Positions 2,333 through 3,393 of a stretch of DNA of 64,000 bases are shown here, piece by piece. The stretch comes from Candidatus Heimdallarchaeota archaeon (GTDB lineage Archaea > Asgardarchaeota > Heimdallarchaeia > JABLTI01), in assembly GCA_019056785.1 (NCBI GenBank), contig DXJV01000087.1:1-64000 (forward strand), written 5' to 3'. Position 1 is the stretch's first letter, and each line of letters starts with the position of its first letter. The position numbers and the translations under genes were made by a program. The notes under the pieces are model-generated. The model was not told where the DNA came from. It saw only the letters and a program-made list of their open reading frames with translations, and did not search any database.

Positions 2333-3393
2333 GACTCATCGGAAAATTACTAACACCAATAGTGATAGAAAAACCAACGTTCTACATCAAAGGGTGTAGA
2401 GTAACGATAACAAAAAAAGCAGAGGAAAAAGAAAATGGCAGATTTGCCTACCCGGAAAAATTGTTTTATGGAAAACTGGTCAAAGATAGAAGAAGGCCTC
2501 CAACAGTAAAAACATGCTTTCAAGGATTCGTGGTAGTGGACTGCCCAGGAACAAACAATCAAGCAAAGAAAAAATTGCAGTGGTTCTTTGGCTTGGACGG
2601 TTTGGGAAGACAGCAAAACGAAGGCATGGGGAGAATTCGCTGGTTGCAAAAAAAAGAAGTCGCCTACGTGAAAAAAGAGCCGCCGAAGAAAAAACTCCGG
2701 ATAAGAAAAGGATTGGGCTACTACCCAAAACCAATGGTTCGTGCAATAACCGCACTCCTCCTGCATGACTTTGTGCACACAGAAAAACACGACAGCAAGA
2801 TCTACCACGAGGTGGAAATAACTGACGAACTTATGAGAGAAGCATGCAAAAACCACCATACGAGTGTGAATCGAAACGAAAACTGGCTCATACCAATTAT
2901 CCAGAAATACGATAGATTAGCAGCACTCATCAATAGAAAAAAACCACTAAGAAAAGAGAAACGATACGACTACGAAAATGGAGCAATAAATTGCAAACAA
3001 ATAGCAGAGTTAATAACTGAAAAACAAAAATCGGCTAACGCACTTTATAACTACATCTACTACGACAAACAATTCGCAAGGTTCTATGAGTCAATAAACT
3101 ACGCAAACAACAGTAGCCTAAGAAAACACCTCCTTCTAGCAGTAAACCTATTAATCAATGATTTTAAAAAGGGAAGACTGGTCATCAAAAATAACAAAGT
3201 AATGATAGTTTCTTCATCGGCAAAAGATAAAGAAGAAACCAAAAAATTCTTATCTAAGCCAAAGGTGCTGAAACGCATCTACCCGCCGAAAAAAGGGGCA
3301 GAAAGCAAAATCGCTGCCCTCCAGGAACGGCCTGTGGAGGAGAAAAACCATCCGAAAAACACAGAAAAAAGCCACTTGCGGCGGGATACCTAA
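2308..3393 (+). CDS. cas5: Cas5-like RAMP fused to a Cas10-type (circularly permuted) HD nuclease domain
   Basis: N-terminal 'LIGKLLTPI' and G-loop 'GLGRQQNEGMGRI'; then ALLLHDFVH, HH, YDRLAA and a distal SLRKH helix equivalent to the SLxDH of Cas10/Csm1. Overlaps cas7 by 25 nt. Confidence 0.75.
   Translation: MAEKSKRLRLIGKLLTPIVIEKPTFYIKGCRVTITKKAEEKENGRFAYPEKLFYGKLVKDRRRPPTVKTCFQGFVVVDCPGTNNQAKKKLQWFFGLDGLGRQQNEGMGRIRWLQKKEVAYVKKEPPKKKLRIRKGLGYYPKPMVRAITALLLHDFVHTEKHDSKIYHEVEITDELMREACKNHHTSVNRNENWLIPIIQKYDRLAALINRKKPLRKEKRYDYENGAINCKQIAELITEKQKSANALYNYIYYDKQFARFYESINYANNSSLRKHLLLAVNLLINDFKKGRLVIKNNKVMIVSSSAKDKEETKKFLSKPKVLKRIYPPKKGAESKIAALQERPVEEKNHPKNTEKSHLRRDT
3263..3391 (+). ncRNA. Candidate structured RNA (or ssDNA hairpin element) overlapping the 3' end of cas5-HD
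   Basis: Stems read directly: AGGTGC/GCATCT (3263-68/3275-80), CCCGCCG/CGGCGGG (3282-88/3379-85), GGGGCAG/CTGCCCT (3295-3301/3314-20), CAGG/CCTG and CCTCCA/TGGAGG (3318-40). A-rich loops; G-U pairs favour the + strand. Confidence 0.45.

Follow-up and report, generated by a model that had tools for sequence, protein, structure and literature searches.

The window analysed here is a stretch of 64,000 nucleotides (nt) from a Candidatus Heimdallarchaeota archaeon (GenBank assembly GCA_019056785.1, contig DXJV01000087.1, positions 1 to 64,000 of the forward strand). Close to its start, a cassette of two genes is encoded on the plus strand: a Cas7-like gene (P0002, 1526..2332, 268 amino acids (aa)) and a gene whose product carries a RAMP-like domain and an HD domain (RAMP-HD; P0001, 2308..3393, 361 aa). 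The cassette is followed on the same strand by the EF-2 gene (3424..5643; Pfam GTP_EFTU, EFG_III, EFG_IV, and EFG_C), whose ATG (3424) lies 31 nt past the end of the RAMP-HD open reading frame (ORF). As read from the sequence comparisons, positions ~3209-3419 of the plus strand encode a structured RNA of ~200 nt, which begins where the folded part of RAMP-HD (to about residue 303, nt ~3216) ends. An initial annotation, made from the letters of the window, had marked a GC-rich multi-stem element at 3263-3391, i.e., within the last 43 codons of the ORF 2308-3393 (plus strand); this core was confirmed, but the true span of the element proved to be larger. We regard this RNA as the strongest candidate to date for the RNA partner that has been missing from array-less Cas7/RAMP-HD systems.

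For comparison, 84 homologous loci were retrieved. The RNA copies of the window and of its 11 closest loci (12 copies) are referred to as group A, for which a structure of six helices was drawn by hand; groups B and C contain paralogous copies. The P-2, P-1, P5, and P6 helices were assessed by eye on printed alignments and not with the counting tool used for the others. All of the helices lie on the plus strand. The 5' domain (3209..3262), found in both the minimum free energy and the centroid folds, comprises a conserved motif (TTTCTTCATCGGCAA in the window and TCTCAnnATCGGCAA in paralogues), helix P-2 (3219-3221/3258-3260), and hairpin P-1 (3225-3234/3247-3255). By eye, P-2 covaries (GGC/GCC versus GAC/GUC, and GGCA/UGCU versus GGUA/UACC), as does P-1 (GAA/UUC versus AGG/CCU), and the P-1 position is occupied in paralogues by unrelated complementary stems (AGUGA/UCACU, ACGAG/CUCGU, and GAGUG/CACUC). 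The P0 hairpin AGGUGC-UGAAAC-GCAUCU (3263..3280, stem 3263-3268/3275-3280) is the best-conserved feature of the RNA in groups A and B, being paired in 100% of the 12 group A copies and in 93% of 46 group B copies. A three-way-junction domain (3282..3385), which includes an A6 linker, is closed by P1 (CCCGCCG/CGGCGGG, 3282-3288/3379-3385) and contains hairpin P2 (3295-3301/3314-3320) and a compound arm built of P3 (3322-3325/3375-3378), P3b (3329-3331/3371-3373), P4 (3332-3336/3360-3364), and P5 (3339-3341/3351-3353). The 3' domain (3386..3419) consists of ATA-CCTAA, the P6 helix (3390-3394/3405-3409) with an A-rich loop, in which the TAA stop of the RAMP-HD ORF is contained, and a single-stranded terminal motif, which is TGAGTTGTAA (3410-3419) in the window and GGTGATA-like in groups B and C. 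P6 reads CUAAA/UUUAG in all group A copies although its loop varies in length, and its group B equivalents are unrelated complementary stems (CUAAU/AUUAG, AACGAU/AUCGUU, and ACAGC/GCUGU).

The 7-base-pair stem CCCGCCG/CGGCGGG and the hairpin 5' of it are present as the initial annotation had described them. Of the two hairpins placed inside this stem, one corresponds to P2, while the other turned out to be the compound arm P3/P3b/P4/P5. The supposed ~35-nt unpaired A-rich stretch (3341-3378) is made up mostly of the 3' strands of P5, P4, P3b, and P3, and the conserved unpaired runs within the RNA are limited to the A6 linker and to loops and bulges of less than 10 nt at most. Nor was a competition of two helices for positions 3318-3320 borne out: the last position of P2 in the conserved structure is 3320, and P3 does not begin before 3322.

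The fold of the RNA is genuine: it is specific to one strand and is upheld by compensatory substitutions. The plus strand of 3263-3391 was folded by RNAfold with an energy of -44.4 kcal/mol (z = -3.87), and none of 200 dinucleotide shuffles folded as well, whereas the minus strand gave a z value of -0.27; for the extended element (3205-3423), the z values were -3.12 (plus) and -0.95 (minus). In the 12 group A loci, 95.6% of the 384 cells were paired and double changes were observed at 15 of the 32 pairs, so that two of the checks proposed in the initial annotation, folding against shuffles and covariation at homologous loci, came out in favour of the structure. On four of five measures, the observed group A value was reached by none of 500 shuffles; the fifth measure, the count of further pair types, was reached by 8 of the 500. 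When the 3' partners were slid by 1-3 columns as a control, 34-44% of the cells were paired and zero to three pairs had double changes. Compensatory changes affected four of the seven pairs of P1, whose arms in group A are CCCGCCG/CGGCGGG, CTCAGCG/CGCTGAG, CTCATCG/CGATGAG, and TCCATCG/CGATGGA, and six of the seven pairs of P2. Several conserved pairs are G-U, which would be C-A mismatches on the opposite strand; therefore, the fold works only as a plus-strand RNA. In group B, 92.4% of the cells were paired, with double changes at 19 of 27 pairs versus five to nine in the slid alignments, counts that favour the supplied structure in that P1 was regained only after realignment to the R2 covariance model; P1 had been missed by RNAalifold on the MAFFT alignment because of register shifts.

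An Rfam 15 cmscan of window positions 1-8000 with E values up to 10 gave no plus-strand match overlapping 3200-3425, the nearest row being a chance minus-strand match to mir-7957 (E = 7.6), and a scan of 15 paralogous loci at the gathering thresholds returned only two tRNAs. The database check thus assigned the RNA to no family. No description of this RNA was found in the literature, and the 20 sequencing runs listed as containing the locus are all DNA metagenomes. An H/ACA or C/D small RNA, hinted at by the ATA after P1 and by CUGA in the P0 loop, was considered and dropped because there was no Rfam match, a pocket and K-turn did not fit, and the ATA is the lead-in to P6.

Judging from the alignments, the last ~58 codons of RAMP-HD are a read-through into the RNA, with the constraint on the nucleotides and not on the peptide. 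In two loci (L002 and L029), a TGA stop occurs within the 3' arm of P1 and the nucleotides downstream of it are still conserved; one homologue (L030) ends in ...INLRWNS* and two others (L031 and L034) in ...NQLAME*, encoded by essentially the same letters in different frames; and the RAMP-HD tail of L003 contains a +1 insertion. P0 is translated as KVLKRI in group A and, in another frame, as DAEMH in group B, and the RAMP-HD protein of group C terminates 5' of its RNA. The ORF overruns into the RNA until it meets a chance stop in this T-poor sequence. The AlphaFold2 (AF2) model of residues 304-361 (nt 3217-3390) has pLDDT values below 50 and is predicted to be disordered, in agreement with the unstructured tail peptide noted in the initial annotation.

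The RNA is linked to the Cas7-like and RAMP-HD cassette in three subfamilies and more than 60 loci. The R1 covariance model, built on group A, gave weak matches directly behind nearly every paralogous RAMP-HD gene, and the R2 model, built on the group B consensus, found 47 copies, all of them on the strand of the gene and at its 3' end. The R2 model gave 38 matches in 11 genomes of the genus; most are located at RAMP-HD genes or their fragments, and about six have no RAMP-HD match listed beside them. The third RNA type (group C), identified only by visual inspection, is found downstream of the genes for short RAMP-HD proteins in another Heimdall family; in these loci (L060-L076), the RNA (...GGAATGTTCTTCGCATCACGCGGAGAACACGTTCTTGTGCATGAGAC...GACGAGAAAGGTGATA) lies 3' of a small hydrophobic ORF and terminates in GGTGATA. 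In every subfamily, the RNA is inherited with the cassette and not with EF-2. Two families yielded RAMP-HD in 9 of 11 and 12 of 22 genomes, respectively, and none of the 27 genomes from five other families had a match, the absences being counted in metagenome-assembled genomes, which may be incomplete. Within one genus, the number of RAMP-HD matches per genome varied from 0 to 14, many of them fragments. Two R1 matches, at contig C31 of the window's genome (G000) and at 8772-8843 of the window, and a P0-like word on contig C101 fall in ordinary coding sequence, are chance-like, and were rejected.

One RNA copy is present per cassette, except for two tandem copies in L028 (1773-1906 and 2054-2185), L040 (4925-5037 and 5146-5260), L066 (4496-4606 and 4715-4829), and L063. 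A complete cassette of one subfamily is joined, in both L040 and L066, precisely to an internal ATG of a 5'-truncated Snf7-type RAMP-HD gene, and the L028 junction shows GTTAA microhomology with the EF-2 start. In one RAMP-HD subfamily (three loci on G003:C9, and G012:C17 and G018:C11), the matches are split into residues 2-120 and 114-349 of a single open frame of ~385-400 aa with one in-frame TAG, for which an insertion, a read-through codon, and a shared pseudogene are possible explanations.

The gene downstream of the RNA differs among the loci. Among EF-2 orthologues (77-91% identical, 29 genomes of the class), the RNA occurs only in the family of the window (f1), with five clear copies and one decayed. 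It was not found 5' of EF-2 in 23 genomes of four other families (f2, f4, f5, and f6; 77-89% identity), where EF-2 is instead preceded by a TTTATAA promoter, a ~45-nt leader, and a GTGAT Shine-Dalgarno (SD) sequence, and which yielded no RAMP-HD. The RNA family is located 5' of at least ten unrelated genes other than EF-2: the genes adjoining paralogous cassettes encode Rpo7, Rpo11, two kinds of Snf7/ESCRT-III, Trm1, a small GTPase, a GluRS-like protein, a zinc-ribbon membrane protein, intron-containing tRNAs (missed by ARAGORN, two of them being detected by Rfam), and an E2/UEV-like protein, and a gene for TFS adjoins a cassette in convergent orientation. At this last site, an intact RNA is kept in two lineages with 47% identical RAMP-HD proteins. 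The terminal SD-like motif is separated from the start codon or the tRNA 5' end by ~6 nt in group B and 4-5 nt in group A; in the window, TGAGTTGTAA ends 4 nt ahead of the EF-2 ATG. No terminator-like site was listed on the plus strand between the RNA and EF-2, the single listed site being on the opposite strand, and therefore the RNA is probably continuous with the EF-2 transcript. The earlier suggestion of an EF-2 leader holds in so far as the two are physically continuous; it fails as a leader of the EF-2 family, given the 23 genomes of cassette-free families without the RNA. A recurrent 8-mer (TGCTGAAA) antisense to the region of the EF-2 G1 motif was within chance expectation and was rejected. 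The first third of EF-2 (3424-4100) uses codons nearly all ending in T, C, or G, and the cassette is very A-rich. The AT skew changes at ~3400, at the border of the cassette and EF-2, because codon usage differs between these two same-strand genes; the initial annotation had correctly located the element at the skew switch, which is accounted for by the genes and not by the element.

Three kinds of Rpo7 allele exist within the genus: empty ones (the window's genome has one of these), occupied ones, and ones that retain only a 3' remnant of RAMP-HD together with the RNA. Empty and occupied alleles are homologous from codon 2 onward; 5' of it, the occupied alleles have the 3' end of the element in place of the native TTTTTAAAAGG promoter, the SD-bearing leader, and the start codon. 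The first codon is ATT in two occupied genomes (L124 and L125; G003:C122 and G018:C88) and ATG in the others, and the empty alleles start with GTG or TTG; therefore, the start codon is supplied by the end of the element. Over 10 kb upstream, full copies at the Rpo7 site shared no synteny with the empty allele. The gene flanking the empty allele, SRP54, was located on different contigs in the occupied genomes, and no cassette gene was present within 1.5 kb of it. A motif of ~22 nt, AAGTGGTGTGCGAGG.AGGATT, is located at the 5' junction of truncated Rpo7-site copies (L141 (G033:C33), 3075-3175; L127; and L026:3936). G033 has two copies of it, one on each side of a 60-nt GC-rich insert, and a similar word precedes the truncated copy on contig C47 of the window's genome (L091, minus strand).

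A block in the RAMP-HD gene, CTATTAATCAATGATTTTAAAAAGGG (3148..3173, plus strand), may be an internal TATA-type promoter for the RNA and the downstream gene. It is unchanged in seven of eight printed group A copies and has one substitution in the remaining copy, and synonymous sites are conserved in it although the homologous proteins are ~60% identical. The block TTTTAAAAAGG resembles TATA boxes of the genus, including the native Rpo7 promoter AGTTTTTAAAAGG, and such a promoter within RAMP-HD is suggested on these grounds. The 5'-truncated copies all retain the region from about residue 272 onward plus the RNA, and hence this block, and some of them score like intact copies (R2 scores of 113 and 105 bits). 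In the genome of the window, a truncated RAMP-HD (residues ~210-348) with a partly decayed RNA (G000:C47:89701-90135, L091; R2 score of 62 bits) lies directly 5' of an E2/UEV-like gene using T-ending codons.

The AF2 model of the Cas7-like protein (pLDDT of 78) had its best Foldseek match to type VII Cas7 (E = 3.9e-8, prob 1.00) and also matched type IV Csf2, gRAMP, and Csm3, with 122 matches at E <= 1e-3; PADLOC gave a match to Csm3 (E = 1e-3). The protein can be confidently modelled as having the Cas7 fold, and its gene is located directly 5' of RAMP-HD at all loci with sufficient flank. The N-terminal RAMP-like domain of RAMP-HD gave weak Foldseek matches to Csm3/Csm4, type VII subunits, and Cmr1 (best E = 4e-3), and the HD domain, with invariant H/D residues, gave a weak PADLOC match to the Cas10 HD region (E = 6e-4). 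The initial label "cas7 + cas5-HD" is therefore reasonable, with the Cas5 assignment still weak. The 60 relatives of RAMP-HD are all from Asgard archaea, mainly from Heimdall lineages.

Divergently from the cassette, on the minus strand, the window encodes the N-terminus of a LAGLIDADG-like protein (2-214; full length ~540 aa), a HEPN-like protein (284-1186), and an AbrB/MazE-like protein (~1242-1418). Pfam searches with the homologues at L002 identified LAGLIDADG_3 (E = 9e-6) and MazE_antitoxin (E = 4e-11). The LAGLIDADG-like gene recurs divergently 5' of group A and group B cassettes (32-76% identity) and its product probably belongs to the same system. The conserved N-terminus of this protein (window 2-214, minus strand; L002:504-2120, minus strand) reads HWSTDPLL..YNDW.TAN; the AbrB/MazE-like gene is often, and the HEPN-like gene sometimes, located between the LAGLIDADG-like gene and the cassette. 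There was no Cas1 among the matches for the scanned neighbour proteins, no dedicated Cas1 search having been run; no CRISPR array in the window or in the retrieved cassette loci; and no Pfam, NCBIfam, or PADLOC match to TnpB or IscB. A preprint on Asgard Tn7 elements does not mention these genes.

Array-less RAMP systems derived from type III, ARAMP and HRAMP, were reportedly described by Makarova et al. in the CRISPR Journal in 2020. They are similar to the cassette of the window in their Asgard host, the combination of a diverged Cas7 with a Cas5-like RAMP protein, an associated nuclease, and the lack of an adjacent array. The cassette differs from ARAMP in that the nuclease is an HD domain fused to the RAMP protein and a dedicated structured RNA is present at every copy. 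In the later texts consulted (PMC8730458; PMC12669027), ARAMP and HRAMP are described without an RNA component and most ARAMPs are said to carry a Cas1-like gene; no Cas1 was seen in the cassette loci, as far as neighbour scans without a dedicated search extend. The comparison was made via such later citing texts, and the cassette may equal one of the ARAMP variants.

The RNA also shares features with the omega RNA (reRNA) of TnpB/IscB systems, namely, a scaffold of ~130-200 nt overlapping the 3' end of the effector ORF and an extension to the element boundary, where the adjoining flank is a candidate guide. In contrast to OMEGA systems, the effectors here have a Cas7 fold and a RAMP-HD architecture and are not RuvC nucleases, and neither IS200/IS605 ends nor TnpA was seen. 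Similar to class 1 CRISPR RNAs (crRNAs; types III, IV, and VII), the RNA is the presumed ligand of a Cas7/Cas5-type complex; unlike them, it is present in a single or two tandem copies, is not derived from a repeat-spacer unit, and is highly structured without a free 30-40-nt spacer. The P0 loop UGAAAC of group A faintly recalls the repeat-derived crRNA handle AUUGAAA(N). With a view to an 8-nt 5' handle, the P0 loop (UGAAAC in group A, and UGAGAU or UGAGAA in group B) resembles the end of the CRISPR repeat of the same genome (ATTGAAAT; compared as AUUGAAAU) weakly. The CRISPR arrays of the window's genome (the whole of C68, C98 from 145.3 kb to its end, and the end of C30) have an unrelated 37-nt repeat, GTTGCAAAAGAAAAAGCTCAATCATGAGTATTGAAAT. 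The CATGAG..TTG part of this repeat faintly resembles the CATGAGCAATGCT core of the group B RNA.

According to PMC8730458, CreA and CreR are RNAs resembling CRISPR units that direct Cascade to a neighbouring promoter. Like CreA, the RNA described here is single and cas-linked, and it could direct a Cas complex to an adjacent gene, for regulation and not defence; CreA, however, is a degenerate repeat-spacer-repeat partly complementary to its target, and neither feature was found here. Unlike riboswitches or leaders of ribosomal protein genes, the RNA does not follow a regulated gene family across lineages.

We favour the reading that the RNA is a dedicated scaffold of the RAMP pair, continuous with the leader of the neighbouring gene, a proposal drawn from the sequence that could as easily be wrong as right. 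One ground for it is that proteins of the Cas7/Cas5 type would be expected to require an RNA, and the loci contain no other conserved one. The RNA would be the third, non-protein component of an array-less cassette of the ARAMP kind (Cas7-like plus RAMP-HD), transcribed either with the cassette or from the TTTTAAAAAGG block, and would provide the fixed scaffold, or "handle", for the assembly of the Cas7-like protein with the Cas5-like RAMP-HD. The first nucleotides of the neighbouring gene, located 3' of the scaffold, would then occupy the position of the Cas7 filament: no free strand of 35 nt exists, and a Cas7 filament, if it binds at all, would bind the sequence after the scaffold. The flanking nucleotides might act as a built-in guide, or as a substrate that is covered or cut. 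The cassette would have taken over the expression signals of its neighbour, with the RNA doubling as the 5' leader. The initial annotation had also proposed an RNA partner of the RAMP complex, and this remains the favoured of its three readings, in line with the cassette linkage and the Cas7 fold; its argument from the length bound by a Cas7 filament fails because 3341-3378 is base-paired. A fusion of the scaffold to the start of a housekeeping gene such that the first nucleotides of the neighbour are a hard-wired guide is possible but doubtful.

Several observations weigh against the scaffold reading. The RNA contains no long single-stranded segment for a Cas7 filament, and the Cas5 identity of the N-terminal domain of RAMP-HD is taken from weak scores of model-based and profile searches. 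Between the RNA and 400 nt of the downstream flank, in sense and antisense, the longest exact matches were 7-10 nt, the same as in shuffles. Truncated copies (G033:C33, G024:C290, and G000:C47) carry the RNA without a cassette protein in genomes with few or no intact RAMP-HD genes; the RNA region can thus be retained, and its neighbour expressed, in the absence of the proteins in cis, which fits a role as leader or promoter at least as well as that of a scaffold. An alternative is a purely cis-acting 5' leader or expression platform of the downstream housekeeping gene: the native promoter having been displaced by the cassette, promoter, leader, SD sequence, and start codon would come from the retained block, and the helices would stabilise or tune the mRNA or mark a processing site, the RAMP proteins having no specific part in it. 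It is in keeping with the replacement of the Rpo7 promoter, leader, and start codon at occupied sites, with the SD-like motif, 4-6-nt spacer, and start codon at nearly every junction, with the plus strand free of terminator-like sites up to EF-2, and with the constant retention of the block from about residue 272 onward plus the RNA in truncated copies, some at intact-like scores. Nevertheless, we consider it rather unlikely: the intact RNA and its terminal GGTGATA motif are also kept before tRNA genes, which need no SD sequence, and both also persist next to the convergent TFS gene in two lineages with only 47% identity in RAMP-HD; eight or nine covarying helices, conserved across paralogues serving unrelated genes, are more than a simple leader would require; and the RNA subfamilies track the subfamilies of the cassette proteins.

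The RNA could alternatively be an OMEGA-like guide scaffold of a homing or mobile element, with the flanking 5' coding sequence of the housekeeping gene as guide and target; the complex would recognise empty alleles, and recombination would copy the element in, aided by the HD or the LAGLIDADG-like nuclease. The layout agrees with such an element: the scaffold overlaps the ORF end and abuts the target at a precise junction, each subfamily is specific to one conserved target gene, and the distribution is patchy (0-14 copies per genome in one genus, many decayed), with occupied, empty, and truncated alleles side by side within one genus. The fusion at the internal ATG of a resident element, the GTTAA microhomology junction, and the recurrence of the LAGLIDADG-like gene with the cassette point in the same direction. 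On the other hand, no transposase, integrase, or terminal repeats were identified, no search aimed at terminal repeats having been run, the left boundary is undefined, with no upstream synteny to the empty allele within 10 kb for the full Rpo7-site copies, the upstream neighbours of group A are conserved in a way compatible with plain vertical inheritance, and there is no sign of recent movement, so this explanation is quite improbable. An element acting as DNA (a replication origin, nick site, or recombination hairpin, as the initial annotation had partly envisaged) or a terminator of the cassette could be invoked for the AT-skew change between the cassette and EF-2 and for the one terminator-like site, which is on the opposite strand. 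Against it stand the significance of the fold on the plus strand only, the RNA-like covariation, the conserved G-U pairs that become C-A mismatches on the other strand, the lack of a T-run after the helices on the plus strand, and the origin of the skew change in the codon usage of the two genes, and we hold it to be most improbable.

Returning to the scaffold reading, array-less RAMP systems (HRAMP and ARAMP) have been puzzling ever since they were described, in that Cas7/Cas5 complexes assemble around an RNA and these systems had no known one; a covarying RNA at every copy provides a concrete and directly testable candidate for this partner. Tool builders, too, would have an interest in a compact Cas7/Cas5 effector whose scaffold RNA is fixed. 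If the hard-wired guide were true, each paralogous cassette would be dedicated to one essential gene (EF-2, Rpo7, Rpo11, TFS, ESCRT-III, or tRNAs), and would either home into and hold its site or switch the gene off on a signal. The cassettes sit exactly at the starts of information-processing and ESCRT genes and replace their native expression signals, and these junctions point to a new way for an element to be hard to lose, or to a bank of gene-specific RNA-protein switches in Heimdallarchaeia.

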